Sequence record: OQ680138.1
From: Escherichia phage PH1061
Strand: one strand, 5' to 3'
Length of the DNA: 39,968 nt
The notes below the pieces were generated by a model that was not told where the DNA came from, searched no databases, and saw only the letters and a list, made by a program, of their open reading frames with translations. Positions 149-39,968 of the stretch are shown here, piece by piece (position 1 is the stretch's first letter; each line of letters begins with the position of its first letter). The translations under genes and the position numbers were made by a program.

Positions 149-2830
149 ATGAGCGTCATCTCCATTGACAAACACGACTTCTCCGATGTGTCGAACGCCA
201 TTGAGCCGTTTAACCTGCTGGCTGACCACTACGGGCAGGACCTTGCAGTCAAACAGCTTCAGCTTGAGCATGAGGCATACACTGAAGGCGAGCGACGTTT
301 CATCAAGAACCTTGAGCGCCAGACTGAGCGCGGGGAACTGGCAGACAATCAGGTCGCCAAGCCTTTGATGCAGACTCTGGTTCCTAAGATTGCACAAGCC
401 GTCAAGGAGTGGCACGAAGGCCAAGACGGGAAGCTGTCAACCTCTCGTCCGAGCGTAGCGTTCACCATGTTGAGCACTGAAGAGAAGGCCGTAAAGGACC
501 GCTCTCTGCGCATCTCCTGTGAGTCTGCTGCGGTTATCATACTGAAGGTCATCCTCTCCAAGCTGGTCAAGCCTGAAGGGATACCGATTACACCGATGGC
601 CTCAGCGATAGGCCGCACACTTGAGGATGAAATACGCTTCGGTCGCATCCGTGACAAGGAGCAGGAGCACTTCAAGAAGGCGATAGCTGAGAACCTGAAC
701 AAGCGAGCTGGTGCATCCTATAAGAAAGCCTACATGCAAGCGGTCGAGACCTCCATGCTGGAGCAAGGACAATTGGAAGACGCGTGGGGTACTTGGAGTC
801 CGACAGAGGCTGTCCACGTTGGCATCAAGATGCTCGAGATTGTCATCCAGTCAACACAACTGGTCGAGCTTAAGCGGTACGGTGCTGGTAATGCAGCGGC
901 TGACGTAGAGATGGTCCACCTGTCAGACTTCTGGGTCAAGAAGATGGCACAACGTGGATTCAGCCTTGCGGGTATCGCACCAGTTTATCAGCCTTGCGTC
1001 GTTCCTCCTAAGCCGTGGATGGGTGTCGTAGGTGGTGGGTACTGGGCCAAAGGTCGCAGACCGTTACCAATGATTCGCTTAGGGTCCAAGTCTGCGTTGG
1101 CACGTTATGAAGACGTGTACATGCCTGAAGTCTATGACGCTGTTAACATCATCCAGAATACACCTTGGAAAGTGAACAAGAAGGTACTGGACGTGGTGAA
1201 CATGGTCGAGAAGCTGAACAACACGCCTATTGATGACATCCCTCAAATGGAACCACTGAAGCCTGAGGACTATGCAGGTGAGACCGAGGAGGAACTCAAG
1301 GCATGGAAGAAGGCTGCGGCTGGTATCTATCGCCGCGAGAAGGCCAGACAGTCACGCAGGTTGTCACTGAGCTTTATCGTTAACCAAGCGAACAAGTTCT
1401 CTCAGTTCAAGGCCATCTGGTTCCCGTACAACATGGACTGGCGAGGTCGTGTCTACGCTGTACCGATGTTCAACCCTCAGGGTAACGACATGCAGAAGGG
1501 TCTCCTGACTCTGGCAGTCGGCAAGCCCATTGGTGCTGATGGTTTCAAATGGCTGAAGGTCCACGGTGCAAACTGTGCGGGTGTCGATAAAGTCACCTTC
1601 GAGGAGCGCATCAAGTGGGTGGAAGACCACCACGACAACATCATGGCTACTGCTAAGGCACCGATGGACAGCATTGAGTGGTGGGGAAAGTTAGACTCTC
1701 CGTTCTGCTTCCTTGCGTTCTGCTTCGAGTATGCTGGAGTAATGCATCACGGCCTGTCTTACTCATGCTCGCTACCGATAGCGTTCGATGGGTCCTGCTC
1801 TGGGATTCAGCACTTCAGCGCGATGCTGAGGGACCACGTAGGCGGACATGCAGTGAACTTAACGCCGTCTGGTCAGGTGCAGGACATCTACCGTATAGTC
1901 TCAGACCGTGTGTCAGACCAGTTGAAAGAGTTATTACTGAGCGGTACGGACGACGAGCTGGTGACCGTAGAGGACAAGAAGACTGGGGAAATCAGCGAAC
2001 GCCTGAAGCTTGGGACCAAGAGTCTTGCGCGTCAGTGGCTGGCCTACGGTATGTCACGCAAGGTCACTAAGCGTTCTGTCATGACTCTGGCCTATGGGTC
2101 GAAAGAGTACGGCTTCGCAGACCAAGTATACGAGGATATCGTGATGCCAGCGATTGACTCAGGGTCTGGCGCTATGTTCACTGAACCAAGCCAAGCGTCT
2201 CGCTTCATGGCTAAGATGATTTGGGAAGCTGTGAGTGTGACAGTAGTTGCTGCGGTTGACGCGATGAAGTGGCTTCAAGGTGCTGCCAAGTTGCTGGCTG
2301 CTGAAGTGAAGGACAAGAAGACTGGTGAAATCCTGAAGCCTTGCCTTCCGGTACACTGGGTAACACCTGATGGTTTCCCGGTCTGGCAGGAATACCGCAA
2401 GAAGGATACCACACGTTTGAACCTGATGTTCTTAGGGTCATTCAACCTTCAGCCTACAGTCAACAAAGGCACGAAGAAAGAGCTGGACAAGCACAAGCAG
2501 GAGTCAGGAATTAGCCCGAACTTCGTCCACTCACAAGATGGTAGCCACCTCCGCAAGACTGTAGTTCACACGCATCGCAAGTATGGCGTGATGTCATTCG
2601 CAGTGATTCACGATAGCTTCGGGACCATCCCGGCTGACGCTGAGTATCTGTTCCGTGGTGTCCGTGAGACGATGGTAGAGACCTACCGCGACAACGATGT
2701 GCTGCTTGACTTCTACGAGCAGTTTGAATACCAGCTTCACGAGAGCCAGCGCGACAAGTTGCCTGAGCTTCCGAAGAAAGGTAAACTGAATATTGAAGAC
2801 ATCTTGTCTTCAGACTTTGCATTCGCTTAA
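149..2830 (+). CDS. 1: Single-subunit DNA-directed RNA polymerase (T7 gene 1 homolog), 893 aa
   Basis: Near-colinear with T7 RNAP from memory; motifs DGSCSGIQHFSAMLRD, HDSFGT and C-terminal FAFA present. Confidence 0.97.
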   Translation: MSVISIDKHDFSDVSNAIEPFNLLADHYGQDLAVKQLQLEHEAYTEGERRFIKNLERQTERGELADNQVAKPLMQTLVPKIAQAVKEWHEGQDGKLSTSRPSVAFTMLSTEEKAVKDRSLRISCESAAVIILKVILSKLVKPEGIPITPMASAIGRTLEDEIRFGRIRDKEQEHFKKAIAENLNKRAGASYKKAYMQAVETSMLEQGQLEDAWGTWSPTEAVHVGIKMLEIVIQSTQLVELKRYGAGNAAADVEMVHLSDFWVKKMAQRGFSLAGIAPVYQPCVVPPKPWMGVVGGGYWAKGRRPLPMIRLGSKSALARYEDVYMPEVYDAVNIIQNTPWKVNKKVLDVVNMVEKLNNTPIDDIPQMEPLKPEDYAGETEEELKAWKKAAAGIYRREKARQSRRLSLSFIVNQANKFSQFKAIWFPYNMDWRGRVYAVPMFNPQGNDMQKGLLTLAVGKPIGADGFKWLKVHGANCAGVDKVTFEERIKWVEDHHDNIMATAKAPMDSIEWWGKLDSPFCFLAFCFEYAGVMHHGLSYSCSLPIAFDGSCSGIQHFSAMLRDHVGGHAVNLTPSGQVQDIYRIVSDRVSDQLKELLLSGTDDELVTVEDKKTGEISERLKLGTKSLARQWLAYGMSRKVTKRSVMTLAYGSKEYGFADQVYEDIVMPAIDSGSGAMFTEPSQASRFMAKMIWEAVSVTVVAAVDAMKWLQGAAKLLAAEVKDKKTGEILKPCLPVHWVTPDGFPVWQEYRKKDTTRLNLMFLGSFNLQPTVNKGTKKELDKHKQESGISPNFVHSQDGSHLRKTVVHTHRKYGVMSFAVIHDSFGTIPADAEYLFRGVRETMVETYRDNDVLLDFYEQFEYQLHESQRDKLPELPKKGKLNIEDILSSDFAFA

Positions 2831-35161: not shown

Positions 35162-36921
35162 GTAAAGACTTAGTGGCGCGTCAGGCGCTAATGACTGCCC
35201 GTATGAAGGCAGACTTCGTGTTCTTCCTGTTCGTTCTATGGAAAGCTCTGTCACTCCCAGTCCCGACTCGCTGTCAGATTGACATGGCGAAGAAACTATC
35301 GGCTGGGGACAACAGGCGCTTCATCCTTCAGGCGTTCCGTGGTATCGGGAAGTCATTCATTACGTGTGCCTTCGTGGTCTGGAAGCTATGGAACAACCCA
35401 GACTTGAAGTTCATGATTGTGTCGGCCTCAAAGGAACGAGCCGATGCGAACTCCATCTTCATCAAGCGAATCATCGACCTCATGCCTCAGCTTCAGGAAC
35501 TCAAGCCTAAGCAGGGACAGCGAGATGCGGTTATCAGCTTCGACGTTGGGCCAGCCAAGCCAGACCACTCACCTTCGGTTAAGTCCGTGGGCATCACTGG
35601 TCAGTTGACTGGTAGTCGTGCTGACATCCTGATTGCCGACGACGTGGAGGTTCCGAACAACTCAGCGACTCAGGCTGCACGAGACCGTCTGTCAGAGCTT
35701 GTGAAAGAGTTCGATGCTATCCTGAAGCCGGGAGGTACAATCATTTATCTGGGCACTCCTCAGAACGAGATGACCCTGTACCGTGAGTTGGAAGGACGTG
35801 GATACACCACTACTATCTGGCCTGCTCGTTATCCACGTGATAAGAAGGACTGGCAGTCTTACGGCGACCGTCTGGCACCGATGCTTCAGGCAGAGCTGGA
35901 AGAGGACCCTGAGTCCTTCTACTGGCGTCCGACTGATGAAGTACGCTTCGATGATACGGACCTGAAGGAGCGTGAGCTGTCATATGGTAAAGCTGGCTTC
36001 GCTCTACAGTTCATGCTTAACCCGAACCTGAGTGATGCCGAGAAGTACCCTCTGAAGCTCCGTGACCTTATCGTAGCCGACTTGGACCCAGCGTCCAGTC
36101 CAATGGTCTACCAATGGTTGCCGAACCCTCAGAACAAGCGTGAGGACGTTCCTAACGTTGGACTCATGGGTGACTCATACCACACGTATCAGACTGTAGG
36201 TTCTGCCTTCAGCTCGTACACCCAGAAGATTCTGGTCATTGACCCTAGTGGTCGTGGTAAGGATGAAACTGGCTATGCGGTACTGTATCAGCTCAACGGC
36301 TATATCTTCGCTATGGAAGTTGGTGGTATGCGTGGTGGCTATGAAGACTCTACGCTGGAAGCCTTGGCTAAGATTGGTCGTAAGTGGAAGGTCAACGAAT
36401 ACGTCATTGAGGGTAACTTCGGTGATGGTATGTACCTTGAGTTATTCAAGCCTGTAGCGGCCCGTGTCCATCCTGCTGCTGTAACTGAAGTGAAGAGCAA
36501 GGGTCAGAAGGAACTCCGCATCTGTGACGTTCTGGAGCCTATCATGGGGTCTCACCGACTTATCGTCAACGCTGCTGCTATCGTCCAAGACTACCAGACA
36601 GCCTCTGACAAGGATGGTGTGCGTAACCCTATCTACTCTCTCTTCTATCAGATGACCCGTATCTCTCGCGAACGTGGAGCCTTGGCACACGATGACCGAC
36701 TTGATGCGCTGGCTATCGGTGTACAGTTCTTCGTTGAGTCGATGGCTAAGGATGCCAACAAAGGCGAACGTGAAGTCACTGAGGAGTGGCTGGAGGAACA
36801 GATGGAGAACCCACGGAAAGGCTTCGAGTCCATCCACACTGAGTTCTGGGACAATGGGGTCCGGGTAACTCACAATACGGACGACGAGCTGGGACTAGGG
36901 TCCTACGTTACGTTCCACTAA
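35158..36921 (+). CDS. 19: Terminase large subunit, 587 aa, apparent TTG start
   Basis: Size of T7 gp19 (586 aa); RBS AAGGAGGT 6 nt before TTG; no in-frame ATG near the start. Confidence 0.93.
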
Positions 36922-36930
36922 CTGAGTGAA

Positions 36931-36979
36931 TAACTATAGGTGAAAGCTGCATGAATACGCAGTTAGTAACCTATAGTTA
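36931..36979. repeat. Perfect 11-bp inverted repeat TAACTATAGGT / ACCTATAGTTA with 27-nt spacer, immediately after the terminase gene
   Basis: Read from sequence; arms contain the promoter-core-like TATAGG on both strands. Confidence 0.8.
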
Positions 36980-37015
36980 CTACCAGTCTAACCTACTGTT
37001 TTACAAAGAGTTTGG

Positions 37016-37038
37016 ACTTAACTATCACTATAGGGAAG
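37016..37038 (+). promoter_or_regulatory. Phage RNAP promoter (phiOR-like), CTTAACTATCACTATAGGGAAGA
   Basis: Consensus match; lies between genes 19 and 19.5 as phiOR does in T7. Confidence 0.85.
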
Positions 37039-37217
37039 ACCCCCGGTTACTTATAGTATTACTGTAGTGAATATACATATGCAGACTTTATGCAAGACCT
37101 TAGGAGGCAGACTCCGAGTTCTTACCTAAGGCTTGCACCGATGGAAGGAGGTGATATTAATCATAATACCTCCAATACAGATAGTCACCGACCATAGATA
37201 CAGGAGGTATGTAGCAT

Positions 37218-37376
37218 ATGGCAAAGACCAAAGCTGTACTTAAAGCTCTGGCGACCAATCGAGCTACATACAGGTTTCTTGCTGCTGTTCTACTTGCTGC
37301 TGGCGTTACTGCTGGAAGTCAGTGGGTCGGGTGGGTCGAGACTCTCGTATGTTCTCTGGTCTCTCAGTGTAATTAA
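37218..37376 (+). CDS. Small hydrophobic protein, 52 aa (gene 19.5 position)
   Basis: Strong RBS AGGAGGT before ATG; predicted TM segment; below track cutoff. Confidence 0.6.
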   Translation: MAKTKAVLKALATNRATYRFLAAVLLAAGVTAGSQWVGWVETLVCSLVSQCN

Positions 37377-37437
37377 CGCAATCATGGTAACGATTCATGA
37401 AAGGAGGTAGTATGATCGGTTATGGCGAAGGCTGAAG

Positions 37438-37581
37438 ACCTAAGGTCAGTTCATAGCTGACGCTACTCTACTGACCTTAGCTACTGTAGTCAAGGACCTA
37501 AAGTAACACTATAGCAGTCCATGGTCTATCCCAAGGTCTCTGACCTACGGTATTGCCTACAGTAGCAGGGACTCCTAAGGA
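37438..37581. repeat. Array of degenerate heptamers (CCTAAGG, CCTAAAG, CCTACGG, CCTACAG) preceding the predicted right terminal repeat
   Basis: Read from sequence; analogous to T7 CCTAAAG short-repeat arrays flanking the terminal repeat. Confidence 0.6.
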
Positions 37582-37618
37582 GGGACGATGAGTTTTGGAC
37601 CAAAAGTTTGAGACCACA

Positions 37619-37825
37619 TCTCACAGTTCAAGAACCTCAAGTCTCCCCATAGGCCCTCTTTAAGTCCAGACCAAAGGCCCTACCCCAGTCTATCATAAGG
37701 TTAGACCGATGGTCAAGACTTCAGGTCAACGATAGGTCTAGGCTATGGCTGGAGGTCAGGACGATAGGTTGGGACTATGGGTCTTCTTTGAGTCTCTATC
37801 TGTATAGTGTTATAGTATAACATTA
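37619..37825. repeat. Predicted genome left end and terminal-repeat region (collapsed to one copy); begins TCTCACAGTT...
   Basis: TCTCACAG...CCCCATAGG... resembles the T7 left terminus (TCTCACAGTGTACGG...CCCCCATAGGGGG); exact repeat length not determinable from a single copy. Confidence 0.55.
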
Positions 37826-37828
37826 CGT

Positions 37829-37930
37829 CCTACAGCCTACAGTCTCACTAACCTACAGTATCAACCATAAGACACCAACACCTACAGTCATAGACCTACA
37901 GTTAATAGACACAAGGCTATAGACTTACGG
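37829..37930. repeat. Array of at least 5 CCTACAG heptamers plus a CTTACGG variant following the predicted terminal repeat
   Basis: Read from sequence. Confidence 0.7.
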
Positions 37931-38013
37931 TCAAAGACATGTTAGTCAAAGACTATATCCTCTTACACCATGAGGCCGACGATAGCTTAATCAATATTAT
38001 TTAAGATTACCTA

Positions 38014-38043
38014 TTGACTACAGGTCTAGACTATGGCTTAATA
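38014..38043 (+). promoter_or_regulatory. Host sigma70-type early promoter (A1-like): -35 TTGACT, about 17-18 bp spacer, -10 CTTAAT/TTAATA
   Basis: Read from sequence; position as T7 A1. Confidence 0.5.
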
Positions 38044-38154
38044 GCTTCCGTCAACACGACACGGCACCAACCGGATAGTGAAGACGCCGGGTCATCCCGG
38101 TTAAGTAGACAGCCTGATAAGTCATACGAACAACAGGCAGATGACAGAAAGTAG

Positions 38155-38184
38155 TTGACAAGCAGTAACGACTTAACGTAGTAT
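38155..38184 (+). promoter_or_regulatory. Host sigma70-type early promoter (A2-like): -35 TTGACA, 18-bp spacer, -10 TAGTAT
   Basis: Upstream block GGATAGTGAAGACGCCGGG...AGTAGACAGCCTGATAAGTC resembles the T7 A1-A2 region (CAACCGGATAAGTAGACAGCCTGATAAGTCG). Confidence 0.6.
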
Positions 38185-38205
38185 GCACCACATCAAGTCG
38201 TTACG

Positions 38206-38232
38206 ATTGATAAGCAGACAGAAAGTGTTAGC
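38206..38232 (+). promoter_or_regulatory. Possible third early promoter (A3-like), -35 TTGATA with suboptimal -10
   Basis: TTGATAAGCAGACAGAAAG resembles the T7 A3 -35 context; -10 unclear. Confidence 0.3.
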
Positions 38233-38333
38233 TTCCGGAGTTTGAAGTATAAGCGCCCGGGTGTTGTAACGGGTCTGCGCCGCTCTTTAACAATCTGGAT
38301 AAACTCTTAATGTGCGCCGATAGCGACTAACTA

Positions 38334-38365
38334 CAGGGTCTTTGAGTCTACATCTGAAGGCCCTG
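38334..38365 (+). promoter_or_regulatory. R0.3-like RNase III hairpin (9-bp stem CAGGGUCUU / AAGGCCCUG) downstream of the conserved CTCTTTAACAATCTGG box
   Basis: CTCTTTAACAATCTGGATAAA matches T7 CTCTTTAACAATCTGGTAAATAG upstream of gene 0.3. Confidence 0.55.
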
Positions 38366-38413
38366 ACTGATAGTCACTAACACACACACAAACAACTTTG
38401 AGAGGATATAACT

Positions 38414-38923
38414 ATGGAACGTAACGCTAACGCGTACTATGAGCTGCTGGCTGCAACTGTTGAAGCATTTAACGAGTGCATTCAGTACGACAAAATAGCT
38501 GAAGGTGATGACTACCATGATGTGCTGCATGAAGTCGTAGATAGTCATGTTCCGCACTATTACCACGAGATTTTCACGGTGATGGCTGCTGATGGTATAG
38601 ACATTGAGTTTGAGGACACTGGGCTGATGCCTGAGACCAAGGACGTAACGCGTATACTGCAGGCTCGCATCTATGAGGCATTGTATAACGACGTGTCTAA
38701 TAGCTCGGATGTGGTCTGGTTTGAGGCTGAAGAGAGCGACGAGGATGACGAATATTGGGTGGTTGACGCTACGACAGGTGTAATCATTGAGCAAGCTGTA
38801 TCACTTGATGTCGCTACTGCATGTGCCAAAGATCACTATGCGCTAGGTCGCCACCTGAAGGTCGAGGACATCAACGATAACGTAGTGTTCGACCCTGCGG
38901 CTGCTGAAGAGGACTGCGAGTAA
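38414..38923 (+). CDS. 0.3: Ocr-like DNA-mimic anti-restriction protein (gene 0.3) with a roughly 50 aa C-terminal extension, 169 aa
   Basis: [45 protein letters not shown] matches T7 Ocr [45 protein letters not shown]; T7 Ocr is 117 aa. Confidence 0.9.
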
Positions 38924-39078
38924 TGGTAACTTATGGTCTCTGCCAGCACCACGTCACCAACGCCCGGATTATAGTAAAGATCGGGCGGTTAAACCACGAT
39001 GAGGCTATGCGTCTACTTAAAGTGGTCTACAGGAGACGCAAGCGTATACACGACAGTTTGCACTCTGAGGACAAGTAA
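38923..39078 (+). CDS. Small early protein, 51 aa, translationally coupled to gene 0.3 (TAATG)
   Basis: Start overlaps the Ocr stop; basic protein; below track cutoff. Confidence 0.45.
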   Translation: MVTYGLCQHHVTNARIIVKIGRLNHDEAMRLLKVVYRRRKRIHDSLHSEDK

Positions 39079-39080
39079 AC

Positions 39081-39206
39081 ATGTGCCAGATAACTTATAG
39101 CAGTGAACAGGCGTTCTACGATGGGTGCTACGAGATGATGAAGCGAGGGGCTTGCTACGTGGCTAATCACCATAGCTTGACCATAACGCTGACTGGTGGG
39201 TACTGA
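39081..39206 (+). CDS. Possible small early protein, 41 aa
   Basis: ATG 3 nt after the previous stop with GAGGA upstream. Confidence 0.3.
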   Translation: MCQITYSSEQAFYDGCYEMMKRGACYVANHHSLTITLTGGY

Positions 39207-39277
39207 GTGATAAACGAGAGGTCATCTGACTGATAGGTGGCCTCAAAGATTATCACTTAAATTGATAGGAGTTAACT

Positions 39278-39382
39278 ATGAGTACTGCAATCATCTGGAC
39301 CATCTCAGGCTTCGTAGCGTGGGGAATGTTTACTCTGGTCAGCAAGCTTCCGGTCATGACTCAACTCTTCTGGGGTTTATGA
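39278..39382 (+). CDS. Small hydrophobic early peptide, 34 aa (MSTAIIWTISGFVAWGMFTLVSKLPVMTQLFWGL)
   Basis: Strong RBS TAGGAG 7 nt before ATG; single predicted TM helix. Confidence 0.5.
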   Translation: MSTAIIWTISGFVAWGMFTLVSKLPVMTQLFWGL

Positions 39383-39582
39383 CTATGAGTCTTGCACTAT
39401 TGATAGCCATATGCTATGGACTTATCGCCTACGTGCTGGGGAGAGACATCAACAAAGCGCGTAAGGTCTACAAATTCAACTATGTACGTCTGGGTCGCTG
39501 GACTGTACGTCAACCTAACGGGCGATTCATGCGCAACTTAGCGAACGTCTGGGATATAGCAACTCTTGGGAGCAAACTGTAA
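39379..39582 (+). CDS. Small early membrane protein, 67 aa
   Basis: ATGA overlap with the preceding peptide; hydrophobic N-terminus SLALLIAICYGLIAYVLG; the track's TTG start at 39262 is less likely. Confidence 0.5.
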   Translation: MTMSLALLIAICYGLIAYVLGRDINKARKVYKFNYVRLGRWTVRQPNGRFMRNLANVWDIATLGSKL

Positions 39583-39908
39583 TGAGTAAATCTTATGGCA
39601 TCAACTTGGTCCATGCATTTGACGCAGACCTTAATCTGCTTTCAGCACTAGCTACAGGCTACCGTCACGGGACCTCAAGTCACACCATTCGTCAACAGCA
39701 GGAGCGTGACCGTGTACTACAGGCACGACTACGGGCCGAGGGACATAAGGCCGAGCTGATGTGTCTGGCGTATGGTGGACGACCAATCACCGACGATGGT
39801 AAACTTCTGGTCTCAGGCTGGAAGGCGATAGACCAACGGTCAACCATCAAGCACACGACTCATGGTGACTTCAGTCATCTTCACGCTAACCCACTGATAT
39901 GCAAGTAA
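39582..39908 (+). CDS. Hypothetical early protein, 108 aa, at the position of T7 gene 0.7; no protein-kinase motifs
   Basis: TAATG coupling with the previous ORF; the 3' end is duplicated at window positions 1..51. Confidence 0.6.
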   Translation: MSKSYGINLVHAFDADLNLLSALATGYRHGTSSHTIRQQQERDRVLQARLRAEGHKAELMCLAYGGRPITDDGKLLVSGWKAIDQRSTIKHTTHGDFSHLHANPLICK

Positions 39909-39913
39909 TTCTG

Positions 39914-39936
39914 ACTTAACTATCACTATAGGACTC
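39914..39936 (+). promoter_or_regulatory. Phage RNAP promoter upstream of the RNAP gene (same element as 57..79)
   Basis: TTAACTATCACTATAGGA. Confidence 0.7.
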
Positions 39937-39968
39937 AAGGTCTAAGACTCCAAGTGAAAGACCAAAGA

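Follow-up and report, generated by a model that had tools for sequence, protein, structure and literature searches.

The region between ocr and the RNA polymerase gene of Escherichia phage PH1061 is most probably a class I (early) accessory block of the Kayfunavirus type, built of two coupled units, with a Gp0.4-type protein directly after ocr and with the gp0.7-type kinase as an optional cassette that this phage does not carry. The five short ORFs of the block, designated A to E, are genuine early genes that are conserved among K1F-like phages. The architecture itself is already known: it has been annotated since K1F (gp0.35 to gp0.38), and over 200 phage genomes in the databases share it. 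The most useful outcome of the analysis is therefore an assignment that can be tested, namely that of ORF A and its K1F orthologue gp0.35 as candidate FtsZ inhibitors of the Gp0.4 type.

The window analysed here (OQ680138.1, the whole stretch of 39,968 nt) is the complete, circularly permuted genome of PH1061, a K1F-like relative of T7. Because window bases 1-111 repeat the last 111 bases (39858-39968), the early block at the end of the window runs into the RNA polymerase gene, which becomes its downstream neighbour after circularization; ORF E is the last gene before it. The nearest DNA relatives are the Kayfunavirus phages EPr2, CHX131, LM33_P1, SH3 and CLB_P1 (88-91% identity over the region), in which the same ORF series is present. 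All five short ORFs of the original prediction (51, 41, 34, 67 and 108 aa) were found on the same strand at the positions listed in Table 1.

Table 1 Features of the PH1061 early region, with positions in the window
Feature	Position	Strand	Description	Basis
Candidate host promoter	38155..38184	+	Best sigma-70-like match upstream of ocr, TTGACA-18-TAGTAT	Consensus scan, 10/12 matches
ocr	38414..38923	+	Gene 0.3 homologue, 169 aa	Pfam PF08684, E = 8.5e-31; PHROG 2568, E = 2.2e-52
ORF A	38923..39078	+	51 aa, Gp0.4 family, K1F gp0.35 orthologue	PF26807, PHROG cross-hits, hhalign
ORF B	39081..39206	+	41 aa, conserved	PHROG 33188; 126 phage records; pN/pS 0.14
RNA hairpin	39204..39259	+	Conserved, homologue of T7 R0.5	MFE, conserved structure, arm alignment to T7
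ORF C	39278..39382	+	34 aa, one hydrophobic helix (predicted), AGGAG Shine-Dalgarno	GRAVY 1.20; homologues
ORF D	39379..39582	+	67 aa, ATG start, predicted N-terminal TM helix and basic 45-aa tail	PHROG 2385
ORF E	39582..39908	+	108 aa, soluble, basic, K1F gp0.38 orthologue	PHROG 7066; pN/pS 0.24
Phage RNA polymerase promoter core	39919..39932	+	ACTATCACTATAGG, between ORF E and gene 1	Motif match
Phage RNA polymerase gene (gene 1)	149..2830	+	893 aa	ORF list; 63% identical to T7 RNA polymerase

ORFs of such length arise by chance across the region, where the ORF listing contains many frames of similar size, and conservation was therefore tested. The ORF A family comprises 53 protein clusters. 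The records matching ORF B are mostly 80-98% identical to it, and ORF C matched 38 records, with full-length homologues in 35 phage records. The ORF D family consists of 118 clusters, none of which carries a Pfam domain, and ORF E was found in 223 phage records and in 145 clusters, all on T7-like contigs of approximately 40 kb. The pN/pS ratios calculated against the window over 28 related loci were 0.43 for A, 0.32 for D, 0.24 for E and 0.23 for ocr; that of B was computed over 18 distinct orthologues. For ORF C, a ratio of 0.37 was obtained from four orthologues, which reach down to 50% amino-acid identity and keep the length of 34 codons. The values of 0.14-0.37 for ORFs B to E point to purifying selection. 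Each of the ORFs A to E starts either behind a Shine-Dalgarno sequence of the GGAG type or at an overlap that couples it to the preceding gene. By their conservation in relatives, pN/pS and start signals, the five ORFs are real genes of the early region.

Two coupled groups, ocr-A-B and C-D-E, were distinguished in place of the continuous chain of TAATG/ATGA overlaps that had been proposed, because A/B and B/C do not overlap. Overlaps of the proposed kind were confirmed at ocr/A (TAATG, 1 nt), C/D (ATGA, 4 nt) and D/E (TAATG), whereas A and B are separated by a 2-nt gap (TAAACATG) and B and C by a 71-nt gap which contains a stable hairpin. The K1F genes 0.35-0.38, as annotated in GenBank, lie between ocr and gene 1 in the same order and on the same strand as the PH1061 block, and with matching junctions; gp0.35 is 84% identical to A, gp0.37 94% to D and gp0.38 74% to E. 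K1F has no ORF B, and ORF E of PH1061 carries a 22-aa N-terminal extension relative to gp0.38. The K1F-type block also occurs in EcoDS1, LM33_P1, CLB_P1, Citrobacter phages SH3-SH5 and Providencia phage EPr2 (genus Kayfunavirus); EPr2 has the same five-gene series as PH1061.

The layout copies that of T7: ocr is followed through a TAATG junction by a 51-aa gene, then by a hairpin and by a small hydrophobic ORF that is ATGA-coupled to the next gene. The T7 junctions 0.3/0.4 (1278/1278) and 0.5/0.6 (1639/1636) correspond in type to ocr/A and C/D. The likeness does not extend to the sequences of the downstream genes. ORF C shows no sequence homology to gp0.5, to which BLAST gave no match (gp0.5 belongs to PHROG 16572, C to no PHROG), and ORFs D and E show none to gp0.6A/B, the MreB-binding protein (comparison with gp0.6B by hhalign gave probabilities of 0.1% and 0.3%, respectively). 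ORF B has no counterpart in T7. In front of gene 1, T7 has R1 and the host promoter C, whereas PH1061 has a phage promoter. A second comparison is provided by Citrobacter phage CR8 (Caroctavirus). Its genes 0.705, 0.71 and 0.38 are homologues of C (50% identity), D and E that are arranged and coupled as in PH1061, and a predicted phage promoter and gene 1 come next there too. CR8 differs in having a kinase of 242 aa ahead of the trio and an extra gene, 0.31, and no counterpart of B is annotated in it.

The hairpin between B and C has a minimum free energy of -30.4 kcal/mol (z = -4.5), and 16 loci preserve the structure, two of its base pairs showing compensatory changes. Its arms align with those of the T7 0.4-0.5 intergenic hairpin, which we take to be the RNase III site R0.5 of Dunn and Studier (1983); the blocks common to both hairpins are GAGTGATA.AC, AGGTC, GTGGCCT and GATTATCAC. 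Like a T7 R0.5-type site, it is irregular, approximately 55 nt long and conserved in its arms, and it occupies an early intergenic position. We regard the hairpin as homologous to R0.5, and by analogy with T7 it would be cleaved by RNase III. An Rfam scan of 36900-39968 returned no family (the R0.5-type site has no Rfam family), and a scan for terminators found none.

Searches of Pfam (in a set without PF26807), NCBIfam, PADLOC and PDB sequences with the five ORFs gave no match. For ORFs B to E, no relative of characterised function came to light and the only matches were to PHROGs of unknown function (C matches none), so that their description as uncharacterised holds. It does not hold for ORF A, the only one of the five with homology to characterised proteins, those of the T7 FtsZ-inhibitor family. 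The model PF26807.1 (Phage_T7_GP04) is matched, according to precomputed database annotation, by a database protein 100% identical to ORF A and by 53 of the 53 clusters of the ORF A family. ORF A is also matched by PHROG 5058 and less strongly by PHROG 7202, which is the T7 gp0.4 family, and T7 gp0.4 in turn matches PHROG 5058. The comparison of the ORF A family profile with T7 gp0.4 by hhalign gave a probability of 86% (E = 5e-6), and the two proteins have the same length of 51 aa and the same position after ocr (TAATG at 38923 and, in T7, at 1278). ORF A is accordingly assigned by sequence to the Gp0.4 family as a diverged member, the overall identity to T7 gp0.4 being only about 35% over 43 columns.

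T7 Gp0.4 binds FtsZ and blocks its polymerisation (Kiro et al. 2013; PMC13423816), and its toxicity is abolished by alanine at V15, V22, W28, M32, L35 or Y39 (PMC13423816). In the hhalign alignment, five of these six FtsZ-contact residues are identical in ORF A, where V15, V22, M32, L35 and Y39 correspond to V11, V18, M29, L32 and Y36. The sixth, W28, is replaced by His25, and this histidine is nearly invariant in the ORF A family. FtsZ is mislocalised and the host forms filaments on K1F infection (Dhanoa et al., PMC9372555); in the same paper, of 2022, K1F was said to lack "the 0.4 genes" and its FtsZ inhibitor was reported as unknown. ORF A, or gp0.35 in K1F, is the obvious candidate for this inhibitor, and the assignment narrows the open question to one gene, situated right after ocr. 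Most likely, ORF A would bind FtsZ and block Z-ring assembly as T7 Gp0.4 does.

A Gp0.4 fold that has been retargeted to another host protein, or that serves as a decoy avoiding CapRel-type sensing, and that does not inhibit FtsZ, has to be weighed against this assignment. W28L and W28A in T7 Gp0.4 abolish FtsZ binding or toxicity (PMC13423816), and because this essential residue is a histidine in ORF A, the target or affinity of ORF A may differ from that of Gp0.4. The CapRelEbc-contact residues A12, T14, L16, S19 and R23 are all changed as well (Q8, H10, T12, R15 and K19 in ORF A), and the C-terminal half of ORF A is strongly basic (RRRKR), unlike that of T7 Gp0.4. We nevertheless consider retargeting rather unlikely, since the remaining FtsZ-interface residues are preserved and the phage with the orthologue gp0.35 does disturb FtsZ and filament its host. 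The divergent residues could also be read together with FtsZ inhibition. In such a combined reading, ORF A would be the FtsZ inhibitor of K1F with a surface so diverged that CapRel-type sensors of the Gp0.4-FtsZ complex miss it, and C, D and E would form an inner-membrane-anchored complex with an undescribed host-takeover or anti-defence function. The trio would then be conserved in at least two Studiervirinae genera whatever their kinase or ocr/SAMase content, and the interchangeable hydrophobic peptide, with its four types in one coupled slot, would be the host-specific component. The membrane complex is suggested by coupling, co-occurrence and hydrophobicity only, and we regard the two proposals taken jointly as possible but doubtful.

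As the original prediction stated, the gene 0.7 kinase is absent: a tblastn search of the whole window with T7 gp0.7 gave no homologue (best E = 4.8). It is also absent from K1F according to the GenBank annotation. Some relatives do encode a kinase, a protein of 244 aa that has 32% identity to residues 21-218 of T7 gp0.7 (E = 1e-34) and covers the kinase domain without the C-terminal part of gp0.7. The gene was found in 8 of the 28 loci, each time together with B, D and E, and A is also present when the first gene is ocr and not that of a SAM hydrolase; in SAKp10309, all of A, B, D and E stand beside it. D and E are intact in the kinase-bearing relatives and not decayed. The kinase gene comes after B and before the small hydrophobic ORF and is preceded by its own R1-like hairpin, whereas in T7 it follows 0.6. 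PH1061 has no counterpart of it between B and C, where the slot measures 172 nt. The CR8 genes run 0.3, 0.31, 0.4, 0.7, C, D and E, with a promoter and gene 1 behind them, and the gene table of phage B1 gives the same order (PMC12785254, Table 1). The kinase of this clade is thus an optional hairpin-bounded cassette upstream of the small membrane ORF, and most relatives are without it (about 48 phage records with the 244-aa-type kinase vs 223 with ORF E). Because the kinase and B, D and E co-occur, the small ORFs represent a standing set and the kinase an accessory. Its absence is therefore the common state in the clade and not a compensated loss.

The proposal that the ORFs stand in PH1061 instead of the kinase was consequently not upheld. 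In its functional form, this proposal would mean that the small proteins took over host shut-off after the kinase was lost; it draws on the position of E directly upstream of gene 1, which is that of 0.7 in T7, and on the lack of the kinase in most E-bearing phages. We find it highly improbable and largely refuted by the co-occurrence described above, including the position of C, D and E downstream of the kinase in CR8. In addition, ORF A and the layout of a TM ORF coupled to the next gene have counterparts in T7, where 0.4, 0.5 and 0.6A/B coexist with 0.7 and have the same TAATG/ATGA junctions. The same position of ORF E, together with an alignment of its C-terminus (KHTTHGDFSHLHANPLI) to T7 gp0.7 residues 71-87 (KMLGNGHFSAAYSHPLL) around a GxGxF motif, might suggest that E derives from the kinase, as a paralogue or as what is left of a decayed N-terminus. 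This idea, which is hardly credible, was rejected, as hhalign gave a probability of only 0.14% (E = 0.42) for E against gp0.7, E is under purifying selection and an intact kinase is present alongside it in many genomes. There is slightly more to be said for the view that some of the short ORFs, C with its 34 aa and B with its 41 aa in particular, are chance frames and that RNA or regulatory elements are conserved instead. Every frame of the region is rich in ORFs of 30-50 aa, ORF C adjoins the conserved hairpin and has no PHROG or Pfam match, it is not annotated in LM33_P1, and some other records have no feature under the match to C. This view is still very unlikely, since the 34 codons of C, its start, its Shine-Dalgarno sequence and its coupling to D are kept across two genera and down to 50% identity, its substitutions are mainly synonymous or conservative, and ORF B shows the lowest pN/pS of the block. 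Moreover, the slot of ORF C always encodes a hydrophobic peptide, though the sequence family changes.

Two of the five ORFs had been described as hydrophobic, which was confirmed for ORF C over its whole length and for the N-terminus of ORF D. ORF C is predicted to be a membrane peptide, with its topology deduced from the sequence. It may be regarded as a positional analogue of T7 gp0.5, with which it shares position, hydrophobicity and ATGA coupling only. A small hydrophobic ORF lies directly upstream of D in 28 of the 28 loci and usually overlaps the start of D. The ORFs in this slot belong to four types without evident mutual similarity: the 34-aa type of PH1061, the 29-aa type of EPr2, the 55-aa two-helix gp0.36 of K1F and a T7 gp0.5-like type, which occurs in one locus. 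The 29-aa type is commoner among the 28 loci than the 34-aa type.

The N-terminal 20 residues of ORF D are hydrophobic (2.23 in the best 19-residue window) and are followed by the basic tail. The AF2 model contains a helix at residues 2-41, with pLDDT of 80-90 for the first 30 residues; the tail is unreliable in this model (pLDDT 52-68). D is probably a single-pass membrane protein whose tail is predicted to be cytoplasmic by the positive-inside rule. The pN/pS ratio was 0.77 in the TM part vs 0.34 in the tail; the TM helix evolves freely and the tail is constrained. In ORF E, some 85 aa make up a conserved core in which the motif DGKLL...QR..I.HT..GDFSHL occurs, and its AF2 model, made with a 28-sequence alignment, is unreliable (pLDDT 49.7). 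When the E family profile was searched against 1.84 billion proteins, the only credible matches were 11 close family members, and E thus appears to be essentially without relatives beyond T7-like phages of about 40 kb. Another match, in a 1594-aa protein, was a spurious coiled-coil. A zinc-binding reading of the C-terminal His/Cys residues of E was dropped because Cys107 and His101 vary in distant members.

Taken as a whole, the block is collinear with T7 0.3-0.6, with ocr, A and B as the first unit and C, D and E as the second, separated by the R0.5-homologous hairpin and followed by the phage promoter and gene 1. Translational coupling would provide the conserved trio C, D and E in a fixed proportion, and we infer that its most likely role is that of a module for host takeover or host range, working at the inner membrane and not essential to the phage. 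As a coupled trio with two predicted membrane proteins and no relatives beyond these phages, C, D and E are reasonable, if unremarkable, targets for screens of toxicity or defence evasion in therapeutic K1F-like phages.

The early block is presumably transcribed by the host RNA polymerase. The best sigma-70-like site upstream of ocr is a candidate for the early promoter and is a pattern match only; sites of this kind are no more frequent in the region than expected from shuffled sequence. The core of the phage RNA polymerase promoter, in contrast, was matched 12 times in the window vs 0.3 expected; the copy between E and gene 1 lies within the 111 nt shared by the two ends and so appears again at 62-75. 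A phage promoter at this position is kept in all 28 related loci, and its core co-varies among them.

A phage-RNAP promoter lies between E, the gene for a basic soluble protein, and gene 1, which encodes the phage RNA polymerase. It was found at the same position in all of the related loci compared (28 of 28, L001-L029), and its core differs by lineage (ACTATCACTATAGG, ACTATCACTAAAGG or AACCCTCACTATAGG). In T7 the equivalent position is occupied by the RNase III processing site R1 and the host promoter C. The placement of a phage-RNAP promoter ahead of its own polymerase gene implies that the transcription of gene 1 is autogenous.

R1-type hairpins resembling that of T7 (ACAGGTCATC...GGTGGCCTG) were found elsewhere in the early regions of the relatives, where each optional cassette, the 244-aa gp0.7-type kinase as well as a 115-aa ORF, is preceded by a hairpin of its own. 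This arrangement suggests that the cassettes move as hairpin-plus-gene units.

Promoter in the window and R1-type hairpins preceding optional cassettes in related loci
Feature	Locus	Coordinates	Location
Phage-RNAP promoter	Window	39919-39932 (= 62-75)	10 nt past E stop, ~75 nt ahead of RNAP start codon
R1-type hairpin	L005	1476-1556	Before optional cassette
R1-type hairpins	L008	995-1080; 1420-1520	Before optional cassettes
R1-type hairpin	L010	1812-1900	Before optional cassette

Depending on the locus, the early region opens with the gene for a SAM hydrolase (L006, L008, L011, L019 and L021-L023) or with ocr (the rest). Of the eight kinase-bearing loci, seven belong to the SAM-hydrolase group, and the gp0.4-like ORF A is absent from all seven. 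The exception among the kinase-bearing loci is SAKp10309, in which ocr, A, B and the kinase occur together. The ocr gene of the window (38414-38923) encodes 169 aa, compared with 117 aa in T7, and the Pfam ocr domain spans only residues 8-96 of this product. The ocr proteins of the relatives fall into two size classes (110-114 aa and 166-169 aa), and the C-terminal extension is therefore variable.

The reading frame of D, the single-pass membrane protein, continues upstream without a stop codon as far as a TTG at 39262, which gives a 106-aa ORF (39262-39582) overlapping C in a different frame. Extended starts of this sort are used in some database entries (87-88 aa). Sequence conservation supports the ATG at 39379 as the start of D. 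The 66-aa database protein P0287 combines the Gp0.4 Pfam domain with 100% identity to D over 43% of the D length and apparently arose by a deletion joining A to D.

E homologues also vary in length. Those of 130-139 aa carry an insertion of ~30 aa (FTDKNGVEWKYVGTDSRGRNYWEKTG) close to the N-terminus (alignment A1), and the K1F-type forms of 83-86 aa are devoid of the 22-aa N-terminal extension of the window E. The resemblance of the E C-terminus KHTTHGDFSHLHANPLI (codons 93-108, 39858-39905) to T7 gp0.7 residues 71-87 (KMLGNGHFSAAYSHPLL) is superficial and not significant (hhalign probability 0.14%).

Misannotations were found in the public records of relatives (LT594300, PV611674, NC_031937 and OR594182). 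The 34-aa ORF C is unannotated in LM33_P1, and the LT594300 copy of this phage gives ‘Phage protein kinase’ under the region where the RefSeq copy has ocr. An A homologue is wrongly labelled ‘NinH protein’ and a T7-type RNAP ‘N4-like RNA polymerase’.

Positions 1-111 of the window are identical to 39858-39968. These 111 nt common to both ends represent a circular-assembly overlap, and the record is thus a permuted genome, redundant at one end, and not one delimited by its physical termini.
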